A stretch of 64,000 bases of DNA from Capsulimonadaceae bacterium (lineage in GTDB: Bacteria; Armatimonadota; Armatimonadia; Armatimonadales; Capsulimonadaceae): contig OZ244065.1 in the NCBI GenBank assembly GCA_965215505.1, positions 1,952,001 through 2,016,000 of the forward strand, given 5' to 3'. The position numbers were made by a program, and so were the translations under genes. The notes below the pieces were generated by a model. The model searched no databases. It saw only the letters and a list, made by a program, of their open reading frames with translations, and had not been told where the DNA came from. This document shows, one piece after another, positions 34,204-59,884 of this stretch; within the stretch, counting starts at the first letter, position 1; each line of letters starts with the position of its first letter.

Positions 34204-34263
34204 GATAATCCCTCATAATCCTTCCGGGCGCAGGCCGCCGCCCTGTTCTGTTGATGTTTGCGG

Positions 34264-36054
34264 TTACGCCGCCGCCCGCTCCCGGCCCCCGCGCCCGTTG
34301 TCGCCGCCCTGGCGCTCCCCGCCCGAGCGGTCGCCGCTAACGGGCTTGCCGCCGCTGGTCGTGACGACCTCGGCGATGGCGACGGAGCGGCGGACGTCGG
34401 TCAGGCGGACCTTGACGATCTGGCCGCCGAAGCGCGCGCCGTTGGACAGCTCCACCTGGAAGGCGCGCTGCGGCAGCAGGTGGGCGGTCGCCCACGGGGC
34501 GCGGTCGCCGTGCGGGTCGTCGCGGCCCACCTGCACCTCGACGGTCTGGCCGCGCCGGGGCGGGGTCAGCGCACCCTCGAACTTCTGGAGGCCGCCCTGG
34601 TCGATGTCGAACTTCTCGATGTGGTGCCAGGACGGGACCGAGCGGACATAGATCGAGCGGCGCAGGGCGCGCTCCAATTCCTCGATGTCTTCGCCCTGCG
34701 CGCCGATGAGGTGGGCGCAGACGTCCGGGTGGGCGCTGACGACGAACGCCTCGTGCGGGGTGGTGGCGGCCAGCTTCCGCAGCTCGCGCTCGATAGACAG
34801 GGAGACAGTCTCGGCGGAGTCGATGCGCCCCAATCCGTGGCAGTAGGGGCAGATCTCGGTCATGGCCGTGTCCACGGTTTCGCCGGTCCGCTTGCGGGTC
34901 ATCTCGATCAGGCCGAGCGCGGAGATGCTGGAGATCTTGGTGCGCGAGCGGTCGTCTTTGAGCGCCTTGACGAAGGCGTCCATGACGGCCTTCTTGTCGC
35001 GGGCGCTGTCCATGTCGATGAAGTCCAGGACGATCATGCCACCCAGGTCGCGCAGGCGGAGCTGGCGGGCGATCTCGTCGGTCGCCTCCAGGTTGGTCTT
35101 CAGGATGGTGTCGGACAGGCCGACGGTGCCGGTGAACTTGCCGGAGTTGACGTCAATGGAAACCAGGGCCTCGGTCTGGTCGATGACGAGCGAGCCGCCC
35201 GAGGGCAGCGGGACCTTGCGCTGCAAGAGTCGCTCGACGTCGGCTTCGATCTTGAAGTGTTCGAAGATGGGCTTGTCGCCGTCATACAGCTCGATCCGGT
35301 CTTGGAGGTCCGGCGACAGACGCGCGATGATCTCGTGCGCCTGCGCGTAGTCGGTCGGCGAGTCAATGACGAGCCGGCTGACGTCGGAGCCGAAGGCGTC
35401 TCGGAGGATCTTCAGGACGAGGCCCATGTCCTGATGGATCAGGGCGGGCGCGGGGGTCGTCTTGGCCTTCTGCTGGATGCCCTTCCAGGTTTCCAAAAGC
35501 ATCAAATAGTCCAGGCGAAGCTCGGCGGCGCTGCGGCCCTCCGACTCGGTGCGGACGATGACGCCCGTGCCCTGCTCCCGGAACTTCTGGACGATCTTTT
35601 TGAGCCGGTCCCGCTCTTTGCCTTCCTCGATCTTGCGCGAGACGCCGAGGTTGTTGGCGTCGGGCATCAGGACCAGGAAGCGGCCGGGCAGGGAGACGCG
35701 CGAGGAGACGCGCGACCCTTTGGTGCTGCGCGGGCCTTTGACGACCTGGACGAGAAGCTGGTCGCCGCGCCGCACCAAGTCGGTGATGTGGAGGTCGCGC
35801 CGGTTGCGGCGCGGGCCGCCGTCCTCGTCGTCTTCGGGCAGAATGTCGGCCACATAGAGGAAGGCGTTGCGCTCCAGGCCGATCTCGACGAAGGCCGCGT
35901 CCATGCCGGGCAGGACATTGTCCACTTTCGCTTTATACAGGTTGCCGACGACGCGCTGTTCGCGCTCGACGTGCAGTTCGGTCAACTGCTTGTCCAGCAG
36001 GACCGCGATGCGCGTCTCCCGGTGGTCCACGTTGACGATGATTTCTTTTGCCAT
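34264..36054 (-). CDS. Rne/Rng family ribonuclease with a C-terminal TRAM-like region
   Basis: S1 domain (VLPGMDAAFV), IDVNSG, TNLEA, RQLRLRDLGGMIVLDFIDM and CPYCHG motifs. Confidence 0.95.
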   Translation of the reverse strand: MAKEIIVNVDHRETRIAVLLDKQLTELHVEREQRVVGNLYKAKVDNVLPGMDAAFVEIGLERNAFLYVADILPEDDEDGGPRRNRRDLHITDLVRRGDQLLVQVVKGPRSTKGSRVSSRVSLPGRFLVLMPDANNLGVSRKIEEGKERDRLKKIVQKFREQGTGVIVRTESEGRSAAELRLDYLMLLETWKGIQQKAKTTPAPALIHQDMGLVLKILRDAFGSDVSRLVIDSPTDYAQAHEIIARLSPDLQDRIELYDGDKPIFEHFKIEADVERLLQRKVPLPSGGSLVIDQTEALVSIDVNSGKFTGTVGLSDTILKTNLEATDEIARQLRLRDLGGMIVLDFIDMDSARDKKAVMDAFVKALKDDRSRTKISSISALGLIEMTRKRTGETVDTAMTEICPYCHGLGRIDSAETVSLSIERELRKLAATTPHEAFVVSAHPDVCAHLIGAQGEDIEELERALRRSIYVRSVPSWHHIEKFDIDQGGLQKFEGALTPPRRGQTVEVQVGRDDPHGDRAPWATAHLLPQRAFQVELSNGARFGGQIVKVRLTDVRRSVAIAEVVTTSGGKPVSGDRSGGERQGGDNGRGGRERAAA

Positions 36055-36105
36055 TCCCTTACTCTTTCAGGTTGCTACCGGCGCTTCCAGCGCCGGTTAA
36101 AAATG

Positions 36106-36615
36106 CTAACGCCCGGTCAGGTGGTGCCAGAAGCGTCCTGCCGCGCCGCCACCGTCCCGCGCCGCCGGGGGGGCGGCCTCGGGGGGGGCGGAGGGCGCGA
36201 CGGGGGCGGTCAGGCCCTTCACCATGATGGGGCGCTCGCCGGGGCGGAGGTAGCCGTAGCTGCGGGCTTCGGAGGCGATCCCGTCGGTCGTCTGCAAATA
36301 GCGGATGCGGCGCGTGAGGTCCGCGTTCTGGGCCACGAGCGCGGCGCTCTCGCGCCGCGTGGCGGCGAGCTGGTCGCTCTGGACGCCGACCTCCCGGTAG
36401 GGCCGGGCGGCTTTGGCGACCAGACCGATGGCGAAGAAGACCAGGACCACGATCACTCCCAGCAGCAGGGCCAGGCGAGCCCAGAGGCCGAGGATGCGCC
36501 GGGGCCGTTTCCAGCCGGACTTGCCGCGCCGGGACCGGCGGCGGCTTTCCAGTTCGTCCGCCTCGATATGCGTGTTCCGGCGGGAGGGCCGGGCGTCTTG
36601 CGTGTCGCTGTCCAT
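36106..36615 (-). CDS. FtsB/DivIC-like septum formation initiator
   Basis: Single TM, coiled coil and EAR..GYLRPGE motif. Confidence 0.8.
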   Translation of the reverse strand: MDSDTQDARPSRRNTHIEADELESRRRSRRGKSGWKRPRRILGLWARLALLLGVIVVLVFFAIGLVAKAARPYREVGVQSDQLAATRRESAALVAQNADLTRRIRYLQTTDGIASEARSYGYLRPGERPIMVKGLTAPVAPSAPPEAAPPAARDGGGAAGRFWHHLTGR

Positions 36616-36653
36616 GATGACTTAGAATTACTCCGGGCCACTATTCCGGGTGA

Positions 36654-38090
36654 TTATTCCGGGCGCAGGGGCTGGCCGATGCGGTGGATCTTGATGAAAT
36701 TGGTGCTGCCGGGCCGGCCCACGGGGACGCCGCCGGTCAGGACCACCACGTCGTCGTTTTTGACCAGTCCGGTCTGCTCGGCGGCATCAATGCTGGCCTG
36801 CATCATGCTGTCCGAGTCGTCGGCGATCTCGACCAGGACCGGATGGACGCCCCAGACGAGGGCCAGCCGCTGGTACGTCTCGGGCAGGTTCGTGGCGCAG
36901 ATGATGGGCGCGCGGGGCCGGTAGCGCGAGACGACGCGGGCCGTCCTCCCGGTGGCCGAGGCGGTCAGGATGGCCGTACAGTTCAGGTCGTGCGCGATGT
37001 CGCAGGTGGCCTGTCCGACCGCGCCGGTGATGGACTGCCCGGTCTCGAGGTGCGTCTTCTCGTCGAGTATCTTGCCGTAGTCCAGCGACCCCTCGGTGTG
37101 GGTGGCGATCTTCGCCATCATGCGGACGGCCTCGAACGGGTACAGGCCGACCGCCGTCTCGCCCGAGAGCATGACGGCGTCGGTGCCGTCGAAGATGGCA
37201 TTCGCCACGTCGGACACCTCGGCGCGGGTCGGGCGGGGGTTGCGGATCATCGAGTCCAGCATCTGGGTGGCCGTGATGACCGGCTTGCCGGCCCGGTTGG
37301 CCTTGCGGATCAGCATCTTCTGGATGACCGGCACCTCGTCAATCGGCACCTCGACGCCGAGGTCGCCGCGCGCCACCATGATGCCGTCCACGGCCTCCAT
37401 GATGGCGTCAATGTTCTGGACCGCCTCATGCTTCTCGATCTTGGCGATCAGCGGGATCTTGGCGCGGGCGGCCTCGCAGACCCCGCGCAGCACGGCGATG
37501 TCGCTGGCCGTCCGGACGAACGAGGCGGCGACGTAGTCCACCTTCTGCGCGATGCCGAAGCGCAGGTCGTCCAGGTCCTTGTCGGTGACGGCGGCGATGG
37601 GCAGCGAGACGCCCGGCACGTTGACGCCCTTGTTGGACGACAGCAGGCCGCCGACGACCACCTCGCAGACGAGGGCGCTGGACCGCTTGGATTTGACCCG
37701 CAGCTCCAGCAGCCCGTCGTCGAGCATCAGGTGTGTCCCCGGCTTGACCGCCTCGAAGATCTCGGGGATGGGCAGGTTGACCTGGTTCTCGTCTCCCGGC
37801 ACGTCGTCCAGGGTCAGCGTGATCTCCGCGCCGGGCCTCAGCAGGACGCCCTCGCCGGCGATGGTGCCGACGCGCACCTTGGGGCCGGACAGGTCTTGCA
37901 GGAGTGCGAGCGGCGTGTTCAGGTCGCGGGCGATGGTACGGAGGTGGCCGATGACCTCGGCGTGCTGCTCGTGGGAGCCGTGGGAGAAGTTGAGGCGCGC
38001 GACGTTCATCCCCGCTTCCACGAGGTGGCGCAGGTTTTCGGGGCTGCGGGAGGCAGGCCCAATGGTGCAGACAATTTTGGTTCGGCGCAT
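36654..38090 (-). CDS. pyk: Pyruvate kinase
   Basis: RTKIVCTIGPAS, ARLNFSHG, AKIE, MVARGDLGVE, ATQML and MLSGETA motifs. Confidence 0.98.
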   Translation of the reverse strand: MRRTKIVCTIGPASRSPENLRHLVEAGMNVARLNFSHGSHEQHAEVIGHLRTIARDLNTPLALLQDLSGPKVRVGTIAGEGVLLRPGAEITLTLDDVPGDENQVNLPIPEIFEAVKPGTHLMLDDGLLELRVKSKRSSALVCEVVVGGLLSSNKGVNVPGVSLPIAAVTDKDLDDLRFGIAQKVDYVAASFVRTASDIAVLRGVCEAARAKIPLIAKIEKHEAVQNIDAIMEAVDGIMVARGDLGVEVPIDEVPVIQKMLIRKANRAGKPVITATQMLDSMIRNPRPTRAEVSDVANAIFDGTDAVMLSGETAVGLYPFEAVRMMAKIATHTEGSLDYGKILDEKTHLETGQSITGAVGQATCDIAHDLNCTAILTASATGRTARVVSRYRPRAPIICATNLPETYQRLALVWGVHPVLVEIADDSDSMMQASIDAAEQTGLVKNDDVVVLTGGVPVGRPGSTNFIKIHRIGQPLRPE

Positions 38091-38138
38091 CAGTGTGGGG
38101 GCCTTCGCGTGGGCGGCGTGTCGGGACGCTGCTTGATT

Positions 38139-38198
38139 ATTATAACCGATTACATCTCGTTCGTCAACATTGACGCGCATTCGGAACTATGTTACCAT
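38139..38198. promoter_or_regulatory. Back-to-back divergent sigma70 promoters (pyk and aspartyl protease)
   Basis: Minus: TTGACG(38167-38162)-17-TATAAT(38144-38139). Plus: TTGACG(38170)-17-TACCAT(38193), then 6 nt to ATG. Confidence 0.75.
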
Positions 38199-38204
38199 AA
38201 AGGC

Positions 38205-39347
38205 ATGAAAACGCTGCTGCTTCTATGTGTTCTGTGGGCGGCGGGGCTGGGCCGCGTCTGCGCCCAGGACGCTGTGACTGTGCCGTTCCAGTTCACAGGC
38301 GGTCATATTTTCGTACCCATCAGCATCAACGGGCAGGGACCGTTCACGGCGCTCTTTGACACCGGCAGTTCTTTGTTTCTGGTGACGCCCGCTCTCGCGA
38401 AGAGCCTGCATCTGGTGACGAACGGGGCGGCACGTGTGAACGGGCTGGGAGGGAAGACATTCGGAGCGGAAACGGCCGAGGCTGAAACCGTACAGATCGG
38501 CGGCGTCACGCTTCCCCATCCCGCCTTCGTCGTGGTTGACTTGGGGGAGGTCAGGGTCAATGCCGTCATCGGCGCTGAGATGCTGCGCCGTTTCGTCGTC
38601 CGGATAGATTACGACGCGCGCCTCCTGACCCTGACGCGCCCCGACAGGTTCGTCTACCGGGGCGGCGGAGTCGTGCTGCCCCTCCGACTGCACGGCGACA
38701 CTCCCGCCGTAGACGGGGCGGTGGACGGCGTCCGGGGCCGGTTCACCCTGGATACGGGGGCGGTGGGTGCCCTGGACCTGTTCGCCCCGTTCGTCCGGGC
38801 ACATGACCTGCGCCACAAGTACGCGGCGGGCTTCACCGGTACGACGGGGGTGGGCCTCGGCGGGGTCATGCAGGCGCAGTCCGTCCGCGTGGGAACCCTG
38901 ACGCTGGGTGCCGCCGAGGTGCCGGACGTCGCGACGGGCCTGTCTGCCGATCAGGGAGGGGCGTCTTCGGCGGCGGACATCGCGGGGAACATCGGGGAGG
39001 CCGTGCTGCGGCGGTTCAACCTGACCTTTGACTATGCGCACGGGCAGGTGATCTTGGAGAAGAACACCGGCTACGGCAGGCCCGAAGACGGCCACGCGGG
39101 GCTTGGGCTGGAGCCGCAGGGGCGGGCGTGGCGCGTGGTCAGCGTCACCCCGGACGGTGCGGCGGCGCAGGCGGGAATCAGGGAGAGCGACTGGGTTATT
39201 CAGATTGCGGGGAAGGATGCCGGGCAACTGTCCCCCGCCGCGCTCTCGGACGTCTTCCACCGGCCCGTCGGCAGGAAGGTTTGGCTGCTGCTCCAAGGGG
39301 GCGGGCAGAGACGGCTCGTGGCGGTGACGCTGGGGAGAGTGCCGTGA
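38205..39347 (+). CDS. Secreted double retropepsin-like aspartyl protease with C-terminal PDZ
   Basis: Signal peptide MKTLLLLC; two DTG motifs (FDTGSS, LDTGAV); PDZ-like tail (AAQAGI..D). Confidence 0.88.
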   Translation: MKTLLLLCVLWAAGLGRVCAQDAVTVPFQFTGGHIFVPISINGQGPFTALFDTGSSLFLVTPALAKSLHLVTNGAARVNGLGGKTFGAETAEAETVQIGGVTLPHPAFVVVDLGEVRVNAVIGAEMLRRFVVRIDYDARLLTLTRPDRFVYRGGGVVLPLRLHGDTPAVDGAVDGVRGRFTLDTGAVGALDLFAPFVRAHDLRHKYAAGFTGTTGVGLGGVMQAQSVRVGTLTLGAAEVPDVATGLSADQGGASSAADIAGNIGEAVLRRFNLTFDYAHGQVILEKNTGYGRPEDGHAGLGLEPQGRAWRVVSVTPDGAAAQAGIRESDWVIQIAGKDAGQLSPAALSDVFHRPVGRKVWLLLQGGGQRRLVAVTLGRVP

Positions 39348-47610: not shown

Positions 47611-48105
47611 TTACCGGTAATTCGTGAACTGGAGCGGGACGTCCAGGTCCTCGCCCTTGAGCATCGCCATCACCGCCTGCAAATCGTCCTTGGCTTTGGC
47701 CGTGACGCGCACCTGCTGGTCCTGGATCTGCGCCGTCACTTTCAGCCCCTTGTCTTTAATGAGCTTGGTGATCTTCTTGGCGGTCTCGGTCGGCAGGCCG
47801 CTCTTGATGGTCACCACCTGCCGGAGCGTCCCCTTACTGGCTTGCTCCATCTTGCCGTATTCCAGAAACTTGACGTCCACGCCGCGCTTGATCAGCTTGG
47901 ACTGGAGTACGTCGGTGAGCGCACTCATCCGCGCCTCGTCGTCCGAATGGAGCGTCAGCTTGTCCTTGTCGTCGTGCTCGATGGCGCTGATGCTGCCCCG
48001 GAAATCGAAGCGCGTCTCGATCTCGCGCTGCGCCTGCCCGACGGCGTTCTTGACCTCCTGCGGGTCCGCCTTCGAGACGATGTCGAAACTGTATTCCGTT
48101 GCCAT
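47611..48105 (-). CDS. yajQ: YajQ family nucleotide/c-di-GMP-binding protein
   Basis: SFDIVS, RFDFRG, AQIQ...VRVT.K.KDDLQ and LQFTNYR motifs. Confidence 0.95.
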   Translation of the reverse strand: MATEYSFDIVSKADPQEVKNAVGQAQREIETRFDFRGSISAIEHDDKDKLTLHSDDEARMSALTDVLQSKLIKRGVDVKFLEYGKMEQASKGTLRQVVTIKSGLPTETAKKITKLIKDKGLKVTAQIQDQQVRVTAKAKDDLQAVMAMLKGEDLDVPLQFTNYR

Positions 48106-51758: not shown

Positions 51759-51979
51759 AGACAACCGCCTACTTCGAGGAGCAGGTTCTCCGCAAGCGCC
51801 CCTACATCAAGCCGGAGTGGTGTGAGCAGGCTCTAAAGACACCGGAACGCCTTGAAGTTCAGGAGGATGGCCGTTACCGCTACTGGATATACATCGCCGA
51901 ACAAGACAAGCATCTTCGCGTGGTGACATTGGCAGATGGTGAAACCATCCATAATGCCTTTTTCGACCGCGATTTCTGA
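51755..51979 (+). CDS. Small putative toxin (RelE/BrnT-like, DUF4258-type) of a DUF2283 TA pair
   Basis: GTG overlapping the ftsK stop; 74 aa with DGRYRYW...LRVV...TIHNAFFDR; directly upstream of a DUF2283 gene. Confidence 0.65.
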   Translation: MKTTAYFEEQVLRKRPYIKPEWCEQALKTPERLEVQEDGRYRYWIYIAEQDKHLRVVTLADGETIHNAFFDRDF

Positions 51980-51992
51980 GGGAACAATCAAG

Positions 51993-52214
51993 ATGAAGCT
52001 TCACTATTATGCCGACACCGACTCACTTTATATTGATCTCAGTGAGAAAACAAGTGTAGAGTCGCGGGAAGTTTCTCCAGGCGTCGTTCTGGACTTCGAC
52101 GACGCGGGCCATCTCTGCGGCATTGATGTTGACCATGCCAGCCAGAACCTTGATCTGTCTCGTCTCGAAGCTGTCTCTCTGCCCGTCGAGATGACCCGAA
52201 TGGTTCATGCCTGA
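51993..52214 (+). CDS. DUF2283 family putative antitoxin
   Basis: MKLHYYADTDSLYIDL...S.EV..GVVLDFD..G.L.GIDV..AS. Confidence 0.85.
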   Translation: MKLHYYADTDSLYIDLSEKTSVESREVSPGVVLDFDDAGHLCGIDVDHASQNLDLSRLEAVSLPVEMTRMVHA

Positions 52215-52246
52215 CCACGGAGCACCGTTAGCAAGCAGAGTGGCAT

Positions 52247-52327
52247 AAGCCCCGCGAGACCATGTTGCAGCGCAAGAATGCGGAAGCGTTCTTCGCGGGG
52301 GTGGGGCAAGGAGATTTAGGACAGTAA
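52247..52327 (+). repeat. Diverged direct repeat of the last 81 bp of ftsK (51678-51758)
   Basis: 69 of 81 positions identical by manual alignment; encodes KPRETMLQRKNAEAFFAGVGQGDLGQ* versus KPREIMLQRENVEAFFAGVGQGDVGQ*. Confidence 0.9.
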
Positions 52328-52410
52328 ATAGGGTATATTATGCCAGCGCCGAGCGGCAAGGGAAGAGAGTCAAAGAAACATAGGGCGGTAAAACCCAGAA
52401 AGAAGGATGT

Positions 52411-52602
52411 ATGAAAAAAGGCAGAAGAGGAATTGACCATCCGCTAGCGAAACTGGATGACGATAAAGTAAGAATGATTAGGAGAGATCATGTTCGCAGT
52501 GGAGGCGGAAAAACTTCCGCTCAGTTTGCTGAAGATTACGACGTGACACAGGGTACGATAGATTCGGCATTTAGCGGTCGGACTTGGAAACATGTGATCT
52601 AG
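52411..52602 (+). CDS. Small HTH protein resembling the C-terminal DNA-binding tail of phage HNH endonucleases
   Basis: G.DHP.AKL....V..IR...A..Y.V.Q.TI....G.TWKHV pattern; AAGGA RBS. Confidence 0.6.
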   Translation: MKKGRRGIDHPLAKLDDDKVRMIRRDHVRSGGGKTSAQFAEDYDVTQGTIDSAFSGRTWKHVI

Positions 52603-52795
52603 GGATCTAAGCCTTGGAGTGCAAACCCCGCCCTTGCAGGCGAAGAACCGTTCGGCACGTTCTTCTTCGATTTGCAAAGGTGGGGTTTTCTCTTGTTTAG
52701 CCCAGCCGTTTAGGGTGAGGTACTGAAGTGAAAAGTTTCTGCTCGTCCTACAGCCACTCTCCACTCACTTCATTGGGGCTTGTATCTTATTGCCA

Positions 52796-53182
52796 TCACC
52801 TTTCGGTGATGGCAATGTCATCAAGATGGAAAGAATTCTTGTCAACGTTATCCCTATGCATCTTGATTGTCCAATTCGACCGAATCAAAGCGCCAAAATT
52901 GTTCTGCGAGTCAACGAAGCTAGTGACTGAGTAGTTGTTTGCTGAAGTGATTGTTACGAAAGAGGCGTCAAAATCCGGGTATTTAGCACTTCCTGGTGAC
53001 TTTAAATGGTCATTCACCATTTCTTGTGCTGCTCCGAACACATCATCTTTCTCCTTCTTTTCATTAGCAGCGGCAGCATCTGCTGTCTCCTTTGCCTGCT
53101 CTTCGGGAGAATTGTCCGAACATCCGGTTACAGCAATGGAGAAAGCCGTTAGCAAAAACAGTCGGCGTGTGATAGATAACAT
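52796..53182 (-). CDS. Hypothetical lipoprotein
   Basis: Lipobox AVTGC; LKSPGSAKYP and VDSQNNFGA motifs; AT-rich. Confidence 0.75.
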   Translation of the reverse strand: MLSITRRLFLLTAFSIAVTGCSDNSPEEQAKETADAAAANEKKEKDDVFGAAQEMVNDHLKSPGSAKYPDFDASFVTITSANNYSVTSFVDSQNNFGALIRSNWTIKMHRDNVDKNSFHLDDIAITER

Positions 53183-53302
53183 ATAAAGCTCCCAGGTGAA
53201 TTTTCTGTATATTCGCCTATCTCTATGCAGAATCCTTCCACAACTGACGCACAGTGGGAGCTCACTCGCAAAGCATCGAAAGATTTGAACAGGAGCAATA
53301 AC

Positions 53303-53611
53303 ATGACCGTGACGCTCAACCTGAAACCCGAAGTGGAAGCACAGATCGCGCAAAAGGCCGCCGCCGAGGGAACGGAAGTCTCCGACTACTTGGAGAAGAT
53401 GATAGAGCATACCATCAAGCCGGGGCCTCGAGTCGTCTACTCACAGGAACAGCTTGCTAAGAACCAGGCGGCTTTGGCAATGCTGGAGGAGTGGGACAAG
53501 GAAGATAAGACGGACGATCCCGAAGAGATCGCCCGCCGCCAGGCGGACTGGGAGGAGTTCAAGAAGGGCATGAACGAGAACCACACATCCGATAGGATTA
53601 TCTATCCATGA
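53303..53611 (+). CDS. Putative antitoxin (RHH-like N-terminus)
   Basis: AGGAG RBS; MTVTLNLKPEVEAQIAQKAAAEG; ATGA overlap with the PIN gene. Confidence 0.75.
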   Translation: MTVTLNLKPEVEAQIAQKAAAEGTEVSDYLEKMIEHTIKPGPRVVYSQEQLAKNQAALAMLEEWDKEDKTDDPEEIARRQADWEEFKKGMNENHTSDRIIYP

Positions 53612-54054
53612 GCGCCGTCGTCATTCTGGATAGCGGCCCAGTGGGGCTGCTGGCACAGCGCAGAGGTGTCGCGCCTGCGTAGGCTTGCCGTCAGTGGCAG
53701 AAGGATTTGCTTGCTGCCGGCGTCCGCGTCATTCTGCCCGAAATTACCGACTATGAGGTGCGCCGGGAGCTTCTGCGGATCAATAGCTTATCCGGCATCA
53801 TGCGCTTGGATCGTCTAGCGGCAGCCGTTGAGTATTTGCCGCTCACCACGGCAGCGATGCGGAAGGCGGCGGAGTTGTGGGCGCTGGTTCGGCAGCAGGG
53901 TAAGCCGACAGCAGACCCGAAAGAGCTTGACGGGGACGTGATTCTAGCGGCTCAGGCCATACTGCTCGGCGCACCGGATTTGGTTGTGGCAACAACAAAC
54001 GTCGGGCATCTATCGCGGTATGTCAACGCGAAGAACTGGCAGGATGTGACATGA
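53608..54054 (+). pseudogene. PIN-domain (VapC-like) toxin interrupted by an in-frame TAG at codon 25
   Basis: MSAVVILDSGPVGLL...APA*ACRQWQ...PEITDYEVRRELLR...LDGDVILAAQA...ATTNVGHL; TAG at 53680-53682. Confidence 0.85.
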
Positions 54055-54353
54055 ATGAAGGTGACAGCGGCGAGGCGACAACCCCGCCTTCTGACGACAG
54101 GGTGCCCGAAGGTTTAGAGACTTACCTACTGAGCGAGTCGGCTCTTGCCAAAGACTGGCTTTCTCCTGAAGAAGACGAGGCGTGGGAACATTTGCAGGAG
54201 CAGGAAGCCGGGACGGGAGAAGGCTCGGCTTACGATCTGTTCAAGGGACTCATCGGGCGCTTTCGGAGCGGCGGTGACGGTGACTGGTCCCAGGATACCG
54301 GCCGTAAGTCCGCCGAGGGAATGGCGGAGAAGCGGCGGCAGGGCCACCTCTAA
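54051..54353 (+). CDS. Small acidic antitoxin-like protein (DUF2281-like SE..LAKDW...EED.AW motif)
   Basis: LLSESALAKDWLSPEEDEAWEHL; ATGA overlap with the PIN gene. Confidence 0.55.
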   Translation: MNEGDSGEATTPPSDDRVPEGLETYLLSESALAKDWLSPEEDEAWEHLQEQEAGTGEGSAYDLFKGLIGRFRSGGDGDWSQDTGRKSAEGMAEKRRQGHL

Positions 54354-54367
54354 AGAGCGGCGAGAAC

Positions 54368-54398
54368 GGGAGGCGAATACCAATCGCCTCCCATTTTT
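54368..54398 (+). terminator. Intrinsic terminator closing the TA patch
   Basis: GGGAGGCGA-loop-TCGCCTCCC-ATTTTT. Confidence 0.75.
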
Positions 54399-54497
54399 GA
54401 TTCTGAACGTACACGGCAAGCCTAATGCCCCTCGCCGCGCCTGCCGATAATGACACGGAAGAGTAGTGAGTGCGGGCAGAGCGCAGGAGGTAACGCC

Positions 54498-55709
54498 GTG
54501 GCGACATTCGTGTATGAGGCCGTTGATCCGTCGGGCCGGATCGTGAAAAACAAGGTGGAAGGGGACAACGAGCAGGCGGTACTCGCCAGGCTCCACGACC
54601 AGCAGTTCCACATCGTCTCGCTGTCCGAGTCTAAGGGCGGCGTGAAGATGCGGATGGCAGCCGGCAAAGGGCAAAAGATCAAGCTGCAAACGCTGGTCGT
54701 CTTCTCGCGGCAGTTCGCGACGATGATTGACGCGGGCATCCCCATCATCAAGTGCCTGGACATTTTGGAGAGCCAGACCAAAGAAGACGCCATGAAGGCG
54801 GTCATCAACGCCACCCGCAAGGACGTCAAAGGCGGGCTGTCGCTGACCGACGCCATCGCGAAGCACCCGAACGCTTTTTCCAAGCTGTACGTCAACATGA
54901 TCCGGGCGGCGGAGATCGGCGGAATCCTGGACGTGATTTTGGACCGGCTTGCAGGATTCTTGGAGAAGGAAATGGAAATACGCGGCAAGATCAAGTCGGC
55001 GATGATGTACCCCATCATCGTCCTGAACTTCGCCGGCGTCATGGTCCTGGCCTTGTTCATGTTCGTGCTGCCGCGTTTCAAGGAGATATTCCTCTCAATG
55101 AACGTGGAGATGCCGGTCGTGACGCTGGCGCTGTTCTCAATCGGCGACTGGCTGCAAAAGTTTTGGTGGGTCGTCCTGATCCTGGGCGTCGCGGGCTACA
55201 TCGGGTTCAAGCAGTACGACAAGACGACCAAGGGCCACTACAACATTGACAAACTGAAGCTGCGTATCCCGATCTTCGGCGACCTGTCGCTGAAGATGAG
55301 CGTCGCGCGCTTCTGCCGCACCTTCGGCACCCTGATCGCCTCGGGCGTTCCGATGATGCGTTCGCTGGAGATCATCGGCGAGACATCCGGCAACGCGGTC
55401 CTGGCCGAGTCCATCGTCAACGCGCGGGCCTCGATCCGGGAGGGCGCGAAGATCAGCTCGCCGCTGGCGGCCTCGGGCCTGTTCCCTTCCATGGTCACGC
55501 ACATGATCGACGTGGGCGAGGAGACGGGGCGGCTGTCCGAGATGCTGTGCAAGGTCGCCGACTTCTATGACGACGAGGTGGACTCGCTGGTGAAGGGGCT
55601 GACGTCGCTCATTGAGCCGATGCTGATCGTGTTCATGGGCGTCCTGGTCGGCTTCATCGCGGTCTCGGTCATGTCGCCGATCTTCAAACTGGTCAGCTCG
55701 ATTCACTAA
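54498..55709 (+). CDS. pilC: Type IV pilus/T2SS inner-membrane platform protein (PilC/GspF)
   Basis: FSRQFATMIDAG, AEIGG.L, SAMMYP, GEETG.L..ML and SLIEP motifs; AGGAGG RBS before the GTG at 54498. Confidence 0.93.
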   Translation: MATFVYEAVDPSGRIVKNKVEGDNEQAVLARLHDQQFHIVSLSESKGGVKMRMAAGKGQKIKLQTLVVFSRQFATMIDAGIPIIKCLDILESQTKEDAMKAVINATRKDVKGGLSLTDAIAKHPNAFSKLYVNMIRAAEIGGILDVILDRLAGFLEKEMEIRGKIKSAMMYPIIVLNFAGVMVLALFMFVLPRFKEIFLSMNVEMPVVTLALFSIGDWLQKFWWVVLILGVAGYIGFKQYDKTTKGHYNIDKLKLRIPIFGDLSLKMSVARFCRTFGTLIASGVPMMRSLEIIGETSGNAVLAESIVNARASIREGAKISSPLAASGLFPSMVTHMIDVGEETGRLSEMLCKVADFYDDEVDSLVKGLTSLIEPMLIVFMGVLVGFIAVSVMSPIFKLVSSIH

Positions 55710-55770
55710 GAGACCCCGCCCCGTCCGCCCACGCAATGGGGCGGCGGACGGGGCGCGGGGTTCTTCAGGC

Positions 55771-57111
55771 ATGGCAGACACAACGAGTTCCGGCACAACA
55801 AGTTCCGGAGAGAAGTCGGGCTGGGACGGGCGCGACCGGCGCGGGCCGAGCCGGCAGGACGACGAGACGCGGGCGCGCAAACTGCTCACCGAGTACAAGG
55901 CCGGCGGGGCGGGCGCGCAGGCCGCCCGCCAGGCGCTCGTCCTCCAATTCCGGCCCCTGGTCCAGAAGCAGGCGCGGCAGTTCCTTTCACCCTCCATTCC
56001 ACTGGAGGACTTGATCCAGGAAGGCTTTTTGGGCTTGATCCACGGCATCGACCAGTACGACCCGACGCGCGGGGTCAAGCTGATCACCTATGCCACCCAC
56101 CACATTGACGGGCACTTGCGCCACTTCCTGCGCGACCGGACCCAGATCATTAAGGAGCCGGCGTGGCTCCAGGAGATGGCCCAGAAGGTGCGGCGCGAGG
56201 CCGAGACGCTGACGCAGGAGATGGGGCGCGAGCCGACCGACGGGGAACTGGCGACGGCTTTGGGGCTGGCCGAGGCGGAGATCGCCCGCATCCGGGCGAC
56301 GCGGGTCATCTTCAACCCGGAGTCACTCGACCAGATGCAGGAGAGCGGGGCGGCTCGCATCCAGGTCGCCGAGAGCAACATGCAGGCCGCCCGGACCGAG
56401 CTGCCCATCGAGGACAAGGTCGTCCTGACGGAAGCCCTGAAGCGGCTGAAGGAGATCGAGCAGAAGGTGCTGTACTCGTTCTACTACGAGGACCGCAGCC
56501 AGACGGACATCGCCAAGTCCCTCGGCGTCTCCAACAACTACGTCTCCCACATCCTCAAAAACTCCGCCCGCAAGTTGCAGCAGATGTTCCGCAGCGACGC
56601 CGTCCGCGAGGCCGCCTTGCAGCACGAGCGCAAGCGCCGCCGTCTAGCCGCGCACGGCCCGGCCGCCCTTGCCGAGGAGGCGGCGGACGACACGCCGCCG
56701 ACCGTCGTTGACCCAGTGACCGGGCTGTACACCCGCCCGTACTTCGAGAGCCGCCTGGACGAAGAGCTGTCCCGCGCCATCCGGCACCAACTGGAGCTGA
56801 CCGTGATCCGCGTCCGGGTCGAGGGCGAGCTGCCCGAGGCAGTCCTGTTCGCCCAGATCGCCCAGACCGTCAAGGACTGCATGCGCCGCTCGGACCTCGT
56901 GGCCCGCTACGAGGAGCGCGAGCTGATCGCGCTGCTGCCGCACACCGGGGCGACGCGCGAGACGGTCGTCGGCCGCCTGCACACCCGGCTGGGCGCGCTG
57001 ACGGCCGGTTTCCCCCACCCCTGTCTTGTCAGCCTGGGTCGGGCCTCCTACCCCGCCCAGCGCCAGCGCGCCGCCCTGCTGACGGCGGCGGCCCCGGAGG
57101 AGCGGGTGTAG
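55771..57111 (+). CDS. SigB/SigF-family sigma factor fused to a degenerate GGDEF domain
   Basis: Region 2 EDLIQEGFLGL..YDPTRG...TYA; region 3 GREPT.GELA; region 4 SQTDIAKSLGVS; then DPVTGLY...RRSDLVARYEEREL. Confidence 0.88.
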   Translation: MADTTSSGTTSSGEKSGWDGRDRRGPSRQDDETRARKLLTEYKAGGAGAQAARQALVLQFRPLVQKQARQFLSPSIPLEDLIQEGFLGLIHGIDQYDPTRGVKLITYATHHIDGHLRHFLRDRTQIIKEPAWLQEMAQKVRREAETLTQEMGREPTDGELATALGLAEAEIARIRATRVIFNPESLDQMQESGAARIQVAESNMQAARTELPIEDKVVLTEALKRLKEIEQKVLYSFYYEDRSQTDIAKSLGVSNNYVSHILKNSARKLQQMFRSDAVREAALQHERKRRRLAAHGPAALAEEAADDTPPTVVDPVTGLYTRPYFESRLDEELSRAIRHQLELTVIRVRVEGELPEAVLFAQIAQTVKDCMRRSDLVARYEERELIALLPHTGATRETVVGRLHTRLGALTAGFPHPCLVSLGRASYPAQRQRAALLTAAAPEERV

Positions 57112-57137
57112 CCGCGCCCCCAATTTCAAGACACAGA

Positions 57138-57173
57138 AGCGCCTGCCGCACCAGATGGTGCGGCGGGCGCTTT
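57138..57173 (+). terminator. Hairpin terminator after the sigma gene
   Basis: AGCGCCTGCCGCACCA-GA-TGGTGCGGCGGGCGCTTT. Confidence 0.6.
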
Positions 57174-57221
57174 CGGCTGGCCGGTCCGTCAAAGCCTTCG
57201 TCCACGGCTTGGCCCTCTGCC

Positions 57222-57929
57222 TTATCCCTGATTGGATCGTGACCGCCCGCCGGGAAGCCTCAGCGCAAAGTCGGCCCGGCGAGGACAATACCACTGACGC
57301 CGCCGATGTGCGCTTGCGAGGTAGGCCGCGCCGCAGCCCAGCGTCAGCCAGGAAGCAGGCCAAAGCATGACCGAGAACAGGTCGGGGATGTTCAGCCGGG
57401 TCATGGACACTGCACAGGCAGCCATCAGGGGGAGAAGGGGCCAAGCAGCAGCGGCGTAGAACAGGCCCGTGAGCGCCCGGTCTGGGAACCTCCTGCCGAC
57501 GGCGGCCCCCACGAGGGTCGGCACGACGACGAGGTATTCCAGCATGAACGTGGTCCCGGAGTTGTCGTATAGTCGGAAGGCCGCCATCACCAGGATGGTG
57601 CAGAAGATCAGGGCGGAGGCGATGACGATGTGTATCCCCAACCCGTACAGCACGGCGGCCATGTCCGGGCTGATCCGGCTCTGGCCACGCCGCCACTCCC
57701 AGGCCAGCCGCCGCCCGATGCGGGTGGGGTCGCCGAACTGCACCAGGGCGAGTTCCCACGCCTCCTGCGGCGAACTGCCTAGCTCCTCGTTCGCCGCCAC
57801 AAGGCTTTCTAGGTGTTGCCGGACCTCCTGATGCAGTTGCACGCGCTCCTCGACAGGGAGACGCTTCAGGGGCGCATTGAAGCGCTGGAACCACTGTTCC
57901 ATCCGGGGATCATCAAGCGGGCCGAGCAT
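57222..57929 (-). CDS. HAAS (permease-prefix/DUF1700-like) domain membrane protein, copy 2
   Basis: EER...EVRQHLE...G....A...AL.QFGDP..IG followed by about four TMs. Confidence 0.78.
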   Translation of the reverse strand: MLGPLDDPRMEQWFQRFNAPLKRLPVEERVQLHQEVRQHLESLVAANEELGSSPQEAWELALVQFGDPTRIGRRLAWEWRRGQSRISPDMAAVLYGLGIHIVIASALIFCTILVMAAFRLYDNSGTTFMLEYLVVVPTLVGAAVGRRFPDRALTGLFYAAAAWPLLPLMAACAVSMTRLNIPDLFSVMLWPASWLTLGCGAAYLASAHRRRQWYCPRRADFALRLPGGRSRSNQG

Positions 57930-57964
57930 GGTGAACGTGTCCTCTCTTGGGCGCTCCCGCCTAA

Positions 57965-58768
57965 TCAGTCGCGCATCAGTTTCGCGTAGAAGTCTTTGAA
58001 GCTGACTGTGCCTGGCGGAAGTCCGGCTTGTCCTGGGAAGCCCAGCCGTGTGGAGAGAACCGGTGTGCCGGGGCCAAGGTGATATTTCGCCCTCGTCCGC
58101 GACACTGTGGGATCGTTGACGGGCACTTGCAGCGTCTTGTCATAGGGGATTTTCTCGACACTGCCGTCGTCCCACAGCACTTCGTAGAACCCGACCGGCT
58201 TCATCGTGAAGGGTTTATTCGGATAGATGACCTGGTTCTGGTGGTAATACAGGCTGGTCTGACCGAGAACGTCTCGGGTCCCGGCGGCTCGCTGGGTGCC
58301 TATCTTTGTACCGTCGGAACGGGTGAGGGAGAAGCTGTAGGGGATCGCCCCCGGCGCGCGGCGCAGCCCCTCGAAGTCAGAAAAGCGGCTGTCGGGGTTG
58401 TTCATCTTTGCGAGAAAATCCTTGACGTCCCGGAAGCCGTATCCCTGCGGGGCGCGGACGATGTCCATGAACAGCGCCGTCTCATCCGCAGGATAGTGGC
58501 CGCCGTGTTTGCGGCGATATCCCAGCATGAGTTGATACATCCGTTTCAAGCCGTCCACCCCGTTTTGGGGGTCGCCGGGCACCTGCCCGTGCGTGTCATA
58601 CAACGCCAGCCCTGTCGGCGGCGCGGCCCGCGCGACGGAGATAATGCTGCTCATCGGCGCGGGAAGGCCATGCGACCGTAGGTACTGCCTGCTGATGCCG
58701 AGCGCCAGCAGCATTAGGATAAGGACGACCGCCGCTTGTCTGAAGCCGCGCTGTTGTGCGAGTTTCAC
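57965..58768 (-). CDS. Membrane-anchored hypothetical protein with pilin/DUF1559-like traits
   Basis: RGF then a hydrophobic helix; LK..Y...HGGHYP; VLWDDGSV. GTG start after an AGAC-preceded GGAG. Confidence 0.6.
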   Translation of the reverse strand: MKLAQQRGFRQAAVVLILMLLALGISRQYLRSHGLPAPMSSIISVARAAPPTGLALYDTHGQVPGDPQNGVDGLKRMYQLMLGYRRKHGGHYPADETALFMDIVRAPQGYGFRDVKDFLAKMNNPDSRFSDFEGLRRAPGAIPYSFSLTRSDGTKIGTQRAAGTRDVLGQTSLYYHQNQVIYPNKPFTMKPVGFYEVLWDDGSVEKIPYDKTLQVPVNDPTVSRTRAKYHLGPGTPVLSTRLGFPGQAGLPPGTVSFKDFYAKLMRD

Positions 58769-58791
58769 GGTCTGCTCCGATCAAAGGAGTG

Positions 58792-59541
58792 TCACCGGCT
58801 GATTTGCGGTCGTCGGCGCGGCAGGTTTAGCTTGAAGTCGGCCAACGAGGGCTTGTACCAGCCGCGCTTGGTCACGCTGGCAAGGTAGGCGATGAGCGAG
58901 TGACCCAGTGCCCAAAGGGGCAGCCACAATTGGCTACGCAGGATCATATACAGCACGGGCTGCGAAAGAGTCATTCTCGGATTGAAGACCTCCATGGCGA
59001 CTATCTCCAGGAACCCAATGAGACTCCACAAGAGGCTTGAGTAGAATGCCCCCTTGATGGCTTGAAGAGGATATTTGCGGCCAATGGCGAGACAGACTAA
59101 GAGTGTTCCGCCGAAGGCGAGGGATTGACAAACGGCAACAGGGAATGGGTGCGCGCTTCCGTCAAAATTGGCTCGGACGTGGGAGTCTCTCAGGAATTGC
59201 CAGGCAAGCAGGTAGAGGGGGGCGATAAGATTTTGGAGCCAGGCAAGTCCTATGCCAAAGAAGACGGCTCTTATGTCGGCACGGAAGCCGGTCCGGCCCT
59301 GTTGCCACTCCTGGTACATCTTCCGCCCGATTTGTGTGGGATCGCCGAACTGCGTCAAGGCGGACTTCCAGGCGACCTCGGCCGGCTGTCCCTGAGCCAC
59401 TTTCGCGGCGGCAAGCCCTTCGAGGTGCTGCCGGATCTCTTCGCGCTGGGCGGTGCGCTCCTCGGCGGGCAGGCGGCGGGAGGCGGCGTCGAAGCGCCGG
59501 AACCAGTCGTTGACGGCGGGACTGTCATGCGGGCTGAACAT
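58792..59541 (-). CDS. HAAS domain membrane protein, copy 1
   Basis: EERTAQREEIRQHLE...ALTQFGDPTQIG followed by about four TMs; GGAGG RBS; overlaps the PadR stop. Confidence 0.78.
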   Translation of the reverse strand: MFSPHDSPAVNDWFRRFDAASRRLPAEERTAQREEIRQHLEGLAAAKVAQGQPAEVAWKSALTQFGDPTQIGRKMYQEWQQGRTGFRADIRAVFFGIGLAWLQNLIAPLYLLAWQFLRDSHVRANFDGSAHPFPVAVCQSLAFGGTLLVCLAIGRKYPLQAIKGAFYSSLLWSLIGFLEIVAMEVFNPRMTLSQPVLYMILRSQLWLPLWALGHSLIAYLASVTKRGWYKPSLADFKLNLPRRRPQISR

Positions 59542-59884
59542 GGGGGGTTCCTCCATTGATGTCGCCGAGGATGTCGTTGACGGCTCGGGAGAAGCGGCTC
59601 CAGGCGCGCACCTGGGAGGCCAATTTGGCGTGGCCGACGTCGGTCAGGGTGTAGACGCGGCGGGCGGGGCCGCTGGGCTGGGTCTGCCACTCGCTTTGAA
59701 CTAGTTCCTCGCGTTCCAGGGCGCGCAGGGCGGGGTAGAGGGCACCCTCGCCGACGGAGAGGGCTTCGCGGCTGCGGCGCTCGATCTCGCGGGCGATGGC
59801 GTAGCCGTGGAGCGGGCCGCCGGACAGGACGGCAAGGATCAAGATCGGGGTGCTGCCTTTTTTTAGTTCCTGCTCTTCACTCAT
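59525..59884 (-). CDS. PadR family transcriptional regulator
   Basis: ILAVL..GPLHGY.I, GALYPAL..LE and RRVY.LT..G motifs. Confidence 0.95.
   Translation of the reverse strand: MSEEQELKKGSTPILILAVLSGGPLHGYAIAREIERRSREALSVGEGALYPALRALEREELVQSEWQTQPSGPARRVYTLTDVGHAKLASQVRAWSRFSRAVNDILGDINGGTPHVQPA

Follow-up and report, generated by a model that had tools for sequence, protein, structure and literature searches.

A sigma factor fused to a degenerate GGDEF domain beside pilC, a candidate sensor of cyclic di-GMP in Armatimonadota

Can a sigma factor sense cyclic di-GMP (c-di-GMP) by itself? This second messenger reaches transcription via repressors, activators, riboswitches and one anti-sigma factor, and the question is raised by a gene of a Capsulimonadaceae bacterium (Armatimonadota; GenBank assembly GCA_965215505.1, contig OZ244065.1) located in a stretch of 64,000 nucleotides (forward-strand positions 1,952,001 to 2,016,000 of the contig; hereafter the window, to which coordinates refer unless the whole genome is named). 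The gene follows pilC, a type IV pilus gene, and encodes an alternative sigma factor whose C-terminal part is a GGDEF-fold domain without the catalytic motif and with the RxxD motif of an inhibitory site (I-site). To judge from sequence comparison, we think it somewhat probable that this fusion is a one-component c-di-GMP-sensing sigma factor that works within a flagellum and pilus network, much as a preliminary description of the window, made from its letters alone, had proposed. Full-text literature searches, supplements excluded, returned no paper on a sigma-GGDEF fusion, and the passages of PMC9239204 that bear on the subject do not treat one.

A sigma factor with a dead cyclase domain

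55771..57111, forward strand: sigma-GGDEF fusion gene, an open reading frame (ORF) of 446 residues plus stop
55936-56142, forward strand: sigma-70 region 2 (Pfam)
56179-56292, forward strand: sigma-70 region 3 (Pfam)
56434-56580, forward strand: sigma-70 region 4 (Pfam; regions 2 to 4 together span 55936..56580)
56581..56703, forward strand: helical linker prolonging the last region 4 helix (AlphaFold2)
56704..57108, forward strand: degenerate GGDEF-fold domain, residues 312-446 (domain model, Foldseek)
56773..56775, forward strand: R335, invariant arginine in the first long helix of the domain (78/78 family sequences)
56884..56895, forward strand: RxxD I-site, R372-R-S-D375 (DgcR alignment, family alignment)
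56911..56925, forward strand: EEREL in place of the catalytic GG[DE]EF, residues 381-385 (translation, DgcR alignment)
56974..56976, forward strand: R402, invariant arginine in the helix after the degenerate motif (78/78, and kept in 12 further representatives)

Pfam places Sigma70_r2 at residues 56-124 of the 446-residue product (E 9.7e-15), Sigma70_r3 at 137-174 and Sigma70_r4 at 222-270, each above its own cut-off, followed by GGDEF (PF00990); the reading frame with sigma regions 2, 3 and 4 ahead of a GGDEF domain that the preliminary description had read from the translation agrees with these matches. Its assignment of the sigma part to the SigB/F/G group stands in so far as TIGR02980 is the top-scoring NCBIfam model (163.5 bits) but does not stand formally, the score being below the cut-off of 234.35. 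The FliA/WhiG (sigma-28) model TIGR02479 gives the fusion 110.7 bits, again under its cut-off (189.6), and gives the genome's true FliA 241.1 bits. Because the fusion scores under both cut-offs it formally belongs to neither named subfamily, and by these profiles it is a group-3 alternative sigma factor of the SigB/F/G-like kind. A full-length AlphaFold2 model built from a 28-row alignment has good local confidence, with a mean predicted local distance difference test score (pLDDT) of 78.3 and a predicted template modelling score (pTM) of 0.38; in it a long helix from region 4 reaches approximately residue 295 (helix 255-295), another follows at 298-305, and the linker stretch is modelled at pLDDT 56-78.

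The domain that follows is confidently predicted to have the GGDEF fold. Its PF00990 match (E 2.3e-13, 50.7 bits against a cut-off of 23.8) is best over residues 359-435, which correspond to positions 58-141 of the 161 in the profile. When the C-terminal 147 residues were modelled with 62 family sequences, AlphaFold2 returned a pLDDT of 91.3 and a pTM of 0.84, and a Foldseek search of the PDB with this model gave 97 matches at E<=0.001, of which the top matches listed are all GGDEF domains (query TM-score, TMq, 0.63-0.78), among them MorA, WspR, PA0575, GcbC, DgcR and DosC.

The architecture is common to more than 120 protein clusters. A word-indexed protein search with the fusion found 2315 proteins at E<=0.001, and of the best 120 clusters, at 52-100% identity and mostly with 430-450 residues, nearly all carry the sigma plus GGDEF Pfam set, the exceptions being P0101 and P0111, for which PF00990 is unlisted; where clusters are named, the name is Armatimonadota, Capsulimonas or Capsulimonadaceae. 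In a genome scan, 172 stretches were found to encode relatives, and 80 of them were kept; the named ones among the 80, on which all locus-level comparisons rest, are likewise Armatimonadota, and the titles of the scan include species of Capsulimonas and Chthonomonas. When Armatimonadota were sampled evenly, 184/301 genomes had a match at E<=1e-45, with matches in 153/238 high-quality genomes, in 113/159 genera and in 18/18 of the organism's own family; these matches are almost always single-copy and mostly extend into the GGDEF part. The C-terminal domain alone, in an exhaustive HMMER search, gave 2945 matches at E<=0.001 and only 23 at E<=1e-10. Eleven of 29 sampled matches of this kind were again sigma plus GGDEF proteins, and one such cluster includes a candidate division KD3-62 protein, as named by NCBI.

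With this breadth in hand, we attach next to no probability to the explanation that the fusion is an artefact of assembly or gene calling, or that its domain is a decaying remnant devoid of function. The same unbroken frame is found in the clusters and genome stretches counted above, in many independent assemblies that include complete chromosomes; an assembly artefact, which the preliminary description had named as a way in which its proposal could fail, is refuted by a fusion that recurs across hundreds of independent assemblies. A remnant, for its part, would hardly model at pLDDT 91 and hold 10 invariant columns over sequences that are down to ~30% identical.

The domain is, as judged by its motifs, without diguanylate-cyclase catalysis, because it has no GG[DE]EF and because, in the near clade, the GTP/metal-binding loop is deleted. 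A phmmer alignment with DgcR (6zxm) sets YEEREL on FGGEEF, with 9 plus 1 gapped residues opposite the DgcR segment DIDKFKNINDTYGH, so that the DxDxFKxxNDxxGH segment for GTP and metal binding is partly lost through a deletion of 9-10 residues. Our family alignment holds 78 sequences (35 from the near clade, the window included, and 43 distant ones at 37-45% identity), drawn from the orthologues in all 80 loci with the incomplete rows L028, L036 and L057 left out. A 9-column deletion is common to all near-clade rows (the window and L001-L036); distant members have the segment at full length yet degenerate, and several of 12 extra representatives carry deletions of other lengths. By eye, GG[DE]EF is seen in no printed family row at the motif position, a position that varies across the family. 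Model and alignment thus bear out what the preliminary description had said of this domain, namely a GGDEF fold, the replacement of GGDEF by EEREL (residues 381-385, 56911-56925) and the loss of the DxDxFK/ND..GH metal-binding segment.

The I-site and its candidate ligand

The part of the domain that has been kept is the I-site motif. RRSD of the fusion aligns with the RKSD I-site of DgcR, which reads AKSA in the deposited I-site mutant 6zxb, and it sits five residues before the degenerate motif; the canonical spacing claimed in the preliminary description (RRSD, residues 372-375, 56884-56895) is therefore correct. R372 and D375 are invariant in 78/78 family sequences, and RxxD is present in 12/12 further sigma-GGDEF representatives, all of which keep RRxD, giving 90/90 overall and an invariance that holds to ~30% domain identity. 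The homologues thus keep the motif on whose conservation the preliminary description had staked its proposal. In the 62-sequence alignment the mean column identity of the GGDEF domain is 42%, with 10 invariant columns. Besides R372 and D375, the residues R335, R402, D314, Y324, R328, E331, E332 and P428 are invariant in 78/78, and R379 is kept in 75/78. R335 stands at what we take to be the position of the secondary I-site arginine of PleD, and R402 is presumably one residue off the third primary I-site arginine of PleD by an ungapped count.

The other GGDEF domains of the same genome provide a standard of comparison. There are 26 of them, 26/26 with GG[DE]EF and 22/26 with RxxD. Because all 26 have GG[DE]EF, the organism makes c-di-GMP and has a rich network for it, and because 4/26 are without RxxD, the motif is not obligatory for the fold. 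Only the invariance of RxxD across a catalytically dead family seems to us to carry weight, and it is the main argument for a receptor role; it suggests that the dead domain has retained an allosteric c-di-GMP pocket in the form of a putative I-site.

It is possible, if rather unlikely, that the dead GGDEF domain is instead a nucleotide-independent protein-protein module, either a dimerisation handle or a dock for an anti-sigma-like protein, a component of the pilus machine or an active cyclase, in which the conserved arginines and aspartate serve contact or fold. Degenerate GGDEF domains are described in passages of PMC5635695 as scaffolds in local-signalling complexes of E. coli, and among the near-clade sequences the helical linker behind region 4 shows strong conservation, as a structural stalk would. 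Yet a motif that the fold can dispense with is here invariant in every sequence compared, together with two arginines at I-site-like positions, which speaks against such a module. That the ligand is another nucleotide, such as another cyclic dinucleotide, a linear product of the pGpG type or (p)ppGpp, we regard as quite improbable. What is conserved is a pocket and not a ligand, and the many HD-GYP and EAL enzymes of the genome have products that could be sensed; on the other hand, c-di-GMP is the named ligand in all GGDEF structures with an occupied I-site from the fold search (4rnh, 5euh, 3ign, 4zmm, 6zxm and 6tts), and the genome's 26 intact GG[DE]EF cyclases speak for the same molecule.

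A pilus operon and a sigma-28-type promoter

54368..54392, forward strand: terminator-like stem-loop with T-run that ends the preceding small gene (9-pair stem, 7 GC pairs, tail ATTTTTGATT)
54422..54451, forward strand: sigma-28 (FliA/WhiG)-type promoter-like element (-35 CTAATGC at 54422-54428, 13-nucleotide spacer, -10 TGCCGATAAT at 54442-54451)
54498..55709, forward strand: pilC, type IV pilus platform protein of 403 residues from GTG (Pfam T2SSF, conserved start)
55714..55761, forward strand: G+C-rich hairpin between pilC and the sigma gene, then TTCTT (-44 kcal/mol, z = -4.07)

The product of pilC holds two T2SSF domains (Pfam, E 1.6e-60). The ORF finder puts its start at ATG 54450, which falls within the promoter's conserved -10; when 31 orthologous upstream regions are aligned, the conserved start, GTG or ATG, is seen at 54498, preceded by a conserved CAGGAGG Shine-Dalgarno sequence, in agreement with the coordinate of the preliminary description. 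That description had also noted that the fusion gene follows pilC in the same direction, as it does (54498..55709 and 55771..57111, both forward), and had suggested a tie to pilus genes and a search for the pairing across Armatimonadota, and here the evidence is stronger than a single window could reveal. Among the 72 loci with at least 1700 nucleotides of upstream sequence, to which the synteny count is limited, pilC lies on the same strand at most 2.5 kb upstream of the fusion in 47 (30/31 near, 17/41 distant). The order secretin, PilB (T2SSE with an MshEN domain), PilT, PilC, sigma-GGDEF was found with Pfam in 3/3 distant loci checked, and tblastn finds pilB-pilT-pilC upstream of the fusion in 16 distant loci, so that deep-branching relatives have a pilQ-pilB-pilT-pilC-sigma operon. 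The window pilC is 64-65% identical to the pilC of these distant pilQBTC-sigma operons and only 40-43% identical to that of another pilB-pilT-pilC cluster in its own genome, which holds several T2SSF and T2SSE genes; orthologous pilQ, pilB (68%) and pilT (68%) lie at 6.085-6.091 Mb of that genome with no T2SSF gene beside them. By gene order and similarity, therefore, the fusion gene was ancestrally the last of a pilQ-pilB-pilT-pilC operon, and because the orthologous pilQ-pilB-pilT lie elsewhere without pilC, this operon has since split with pilC and the sigma gene kept as a unit.

The persistence of the pilC-sigma order after the split could be taken to favour a protein-contact role for the GGDEF domain. 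Nevertheless, 24/41 distant loci, mostly titled Chthonomonadales or Chthonomonadaceae, have the fusion gene away from pilC with varying neighbours, which argues against such a role and makes an obligatory contact with PilC unlikely. We considered a physical contact between PilC and the sigma factor and dropped it, because their joint survival of the split counts as a single event in a single lineage and the genes have come apart in another clade.

Between pilC and the fusion gene lies the strong hairpin that the preliminary description had seen, at 55714-55761, and 0/200 shuffles of this sequence fold as well. It ends 10 nucleotides before the start codon of the sigma gene, which leaves no room for a promoter after it, and the sigma gene must therefore be read through the hairpin or from within pilC. 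Many near-clade loci have G+C-rich stems that begin just behind the pilC stop codon, some with T-runs, as seen by inspection and not against shuffled controls. A search of Rfam with 53500-57600 at E<=1 gave no match, so that the hairpin belongs to no known class of riboswitch or other RNA. Its probable role is that of a partial terminator or attenuator, holding the regulator below the structural protein, or of an RNA-stabilising stem, and it may mask the weak ribosome site of the sigma gene. Four metatranscriptome runs of one study contain short contigs with 90-99% likeness to portions of pilC and the sigma gene; at this likeness they come from relatives, none bridges the hairpin, and they give no starts, ends or levels and may include DNA carry-over.

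Upstream, the stem-loop at 54368..54392 ends the preceding gene, and pilC therefore starts a new transcription unit. The alignment of the window with 30 near-clade loci reads CTAAnGC-N13-TGCCGAyAAT, then CAGGAGG and then the GTG or ATG start, and the promoter core is kept at fixed spacing in 30/31 near-clade pilC upstream regions. This motif equals the published flagellar sigma-28 consensus, given in section 14 of PMC8325347 as -35 TAAA and -10 GCCGATAA, with a spacer one base longer. When a position weight matrix (PWM) of the promoter was run over the organism's own genome, the pilC promoter was the top match (37.9 bits), and there were 9 sites at >=20 bits against 1 in a reversed-sequence control and 18 against 3 at >=16 bits. 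We annotated 20 ORFs downstream of PWM sites with Pfam, of which eight have unrelated domains or none. The others include flagellar genes (FliL, an FlgB-like rod protein, FliK with two sites, and FlgF/G), c-di-GMP-related genes (HD-GYP-GAF-GGDEF, GGDEF-HD-GYP, PAS-GGDEF-EAL, REC-HD-GYP and HDOD), RpoN and a PilB-like ATPase with MshEN. Outside these 20, one more site lies before an ORF with a GGDEF match. A relaxed form of the motif was not found near the pilQ-pilB-pilT cluster of the same genome, and a scan of 54000-57500 for sigma-70-type promoters gave 0 sites. By gene content the organism is flagellate (FlhA, flagellin) and has a bona fide FliA. The rpoN site (at approximately 4304900 of the genome, 23.4 bits) lies 54 nucleotides upstream of this sigma-54 gene and suggests a sigma cascade. 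At approximately 1571600 of the genome, four tandem 12-nucleotide units (CATCGAACTAAT) lie directly upstream of a gene of the flagellin family (FlgL-like).

The stand-alone fusion genes of Chthonomonadales-type loci show this promoter architecture too, directly upstream in 17/24 and with a fixed variant -10 (CTAAAG-N-GGCAATAAT). A strict promoter pattern has 35 forward matches and 1 reverse-strand match in the 152,861 nucleotides of the 80 loci; by group it occurs in 19/36 near loci, 15/30 distant loci without a recognised pilC and 1/14 distant loci with pilC, a grouping in which ORF extension put three loci in the wrong class and flanks are short for several. The exact GGCAATAA variant is rare in Chthonomonadales-type genomes (0-3 matches), and in two of them it has 2 and 3 matches, one of which is the fusion gene in each; the other matches are without an informative downstream gene. 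The canonical pattern at fixed spacing gives 8, 5 and 1 matches in such genomes against 4, 3 and 1 in controls, so that an enrichment is not clear.

The fusion gene itself thus appears to be driven by a sigma-28-type promoter, and the default reader of the pilC promoter appears, on motif and gene content, to be FliA. We think it unlikely that the fusion itself reads the TAAn-N16-GCCGAYAA or GGCAATAA promoter, in positive autoregulation and while sharing or competing with FliA for a flagellar-type regulon. Such a loop would explain why the promoter travels with the gene, before pilC in the near clade and directly before the stand-alone gene with its fixed GGCAATAAT variant, why forward matches so outnumber reverse ones in the 80 loci, and why the exact variant is nearly unique to the fusion gene in two genomes. 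Nevertheless, a bona fide FliA above the NCBIfam cut-off is present in 11/11 genomes checked (the organism's own and 10 distant ones), and the motif equals the flagellar consensus and precedes flagellar genes in the organism's own genome. In addition, the fusion's recognition helix in region 4.2 (SNNYVSH) is unlike that of the genome's FliA (SESRVYQ), as it is unlike that of the SigB/F-like paralogs (SQMHVSR), and its region 2.4 is SigB/F-like; within the family S254, N256, Y257, H260 and K268 are invariant in 78/78 and S259 is kept in 77/78. Telling FliA from the fusion by the absence of FliA fails, all 10 distant genomes tested having FliA above the cut-off. Two such copies are present in 7/10 of them.

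A putative c-di-GMP switch and its setting

Known I-sites, as in PleD, WspR and DgcR, bind intercalated c-di-GMP dimers and immobilise domains. By analogy, c-di-GMP from the genome's many active cyclases would bind the fusion at R372, D375 and R402, presumably as an intercalated dimer like that of other I-sites, and the bound ligand would immobilise the GGDEF domain on the sigma domains or, through R335, on a second copy, so altering the efficiency with which the sigma factor associates with core RNA polymerase. The fusion would be expressed as the distal gene of the pilC-sigma unit, the remnant of the ancestral operon, from the sigma-28-type promoter and by reading through the hairpin, and it would thus be placed in one network with flagellar, pilus and c-di-GMP-turnover genes. 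Ligand binding, its effect on sigma activity, the sigma factor that reads the promoter and the regulon are the parts of this proposal that we infer. Inhibition at high c-di-GMP seems somewhat likelier than activation, because this is the direction suggested by analogy with product inhibition at I-sites and with the RsiG-(c-di-GMP)2-WhiG switch. A two-chain complex prediction with sigma residues 30-296, GGDEF residues 306-446 and two c-di-GMP molecules scored 0.00 in two runs made without controls, a score that speaks neither for nor against such a contact.

Several points weigh against a c-di-GMP-sensing sigma factor of this kind. Which way the regulation runs is guessed by analogy, and the likeness of R335 and R402 to I-site arginines of PleD is putative, with R402 offset by one residue in an ungapped count. 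RxxD in one sequence is unremarkable, because 22/26 cyclases of the genome have it as well. The clade-specific deletion could have changed the domain in ways hidden from its sequence, and the full-length AlphaFold2 model, with its low pTM, does not confidently place the GGDEF domain relative to the sigma domains. Finally, the conserved upstream promoter would be more simply read by the bona fide FliA, at 241 bits, than by the fusion.

The closest parallel to a c-di-GMP-sensing sigma factor is the RsiG-(c-di-GMP)2-WhiG switch of Actinomycetota, described for Streptomyces and Rubrobacter radiotolerans in passages of PMC8325347 and PMC12871210. There, as putatively here, c-di-GMP controls an alternative sigma factor of group 3. 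In Rubrobacter the controlled sigma factor, which belongs to the flagellar clade, is reported in the relevant part of PMC8325347 to drive genes for type IV pili and for diguanylate cyclases and phosphodiesterases, which are in the same regulon, and promoters of the TAAA/GCCGATAA type lie in pilus clusters and before c-di-GMP enzymes in Rubrobacter and in our genome alike. The two systems differ in where the nucleotide is held. In RsiG-WhiG the sigma factor and a separate anti-sigma factor, a coiled-coil protein bearing ExxxSxxRxxxQxxxD motifs, hold it jointly, whereas in the fusion a GGDEF I-site linked in cis is the presumed receptor, and the sigma factor is SigB/F/G-like and not of the FliA/WhiG clade. 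The ExxxSxxRxxxQxxxD spacing was not seen by eye in the linker helix of the fusion, and no search for RsiG was made.

Other parallels concern the domain or the fusion principle. PopA of Caulobacter and PelD of Pseudomonas are degenerate GGDEF proteins of the receptor type with RxxD, and SgmT of Myxococcus is also described, in the part of the literature that we draw on, as a degenerate GGDEF receptor. Like these, the fusion has a catalytically dead GGDEF domain that retains RxxD, putatively as a c-di-GMP input. Their outputs are proteolysis adaptors, polysaccharide synthesis and a histidine kinase, and none is fused to a sigma factor; also unlike them, the sigma-GGDEF family has in one clade lost part of the active-site (A-site) half by deletion. 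The fusion resembles PleD, WspR and DgcR (3bre, 3i5a and 6zxm) in fold (TMq 0.69-0.77), in the position of RxxD and in arginines at putatively I-site-like positions by comparison with PleD, and differs from them in having neither the catalytic motif nor the GTP/metal loop and in having as its N-terminal partner a sigma factor rather than a receiver domain. Sigma factors of the ECF41 and ECF42 types are two-domain extracytoplasmic function (ECF) sigma factors with regulatory C-terminal extensions, SnoaL-like or TPR. As with these, activity of the fusion is expected to be set in cis by the C-terminal domain and not by a separate anti-sigma factor; unlike these, which have no second-messenger pocket, the fusion combines sigma regions 2, 3 and 4 with a GGDEF fold.

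In the window the pilC-sigma unit follows ftsK and a low-GC stretch and converges on a PadR/HAAS block (57222-59884), with the following features:

51936-52214: DUF2283 gene in the low-GC stretch
53707-54054: weak PIN-domain ORF in the low-GC stretch
57222-57929, reverse strand: second HAAS-like membrane paralogue, after an unassigned 267-residue ORF
58792-59556, reverse strand: HAAS-domain membrane protein
59525-59884, reverse strand: PadR regulator, overlapping the HAAS-domain membrane protein

The low-GC stretch between ftsK and pilC (approximately 51800-54400, GC 0.52 against ~0.66) also holds several ORFs without assignment and looks like inserted cargo of the toxin-antitoxin type. The PadR/HAAS block recurs downstream of the fusion in many near-clade loci. 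Further upstream, 47614-48105 on the reverse strand encodes a DUF520/YajQ-family protein (PF04461, E 1.8e-65), a family with members reported as c-di-GMP binders in Xanthomonas, and 34258-39347 on the forward strand holds two long overlapping ORFs (888 and 887 residues) with an unusually high first-position GC of 0.83-0.86 and a third-position GC below that of their neighbours.

What may the fusion mean for these bacteria? It is plausible, at slightly under even chances, that it is the first sigma factor to read c-di-GMP by itself, with a dead cyclase domain as its built-in, ligand-armed anti-sigma factor (or activator), and that FliA turns on the gene along with flagella, pili and c-di-GMP enzymes in a cascade from sigma-28 to sigma-GGDEF that most Armatimonadota would share. 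If this is true, no route from the second messenger to promoter choice could be shorter than a sigma factor with a c-di-GMP pocket of its own, and motile cells would be pre-loaded with a sensor that rewires transcription once c-di-GMP rises. The family, present in ~60% of sampled Armatimonadota genomes, single-copy and tied to pilus and flagellar genes, belongs to a phylum with almost no molecular genetics, for which its promoter and regulon context supplies concrete genes.

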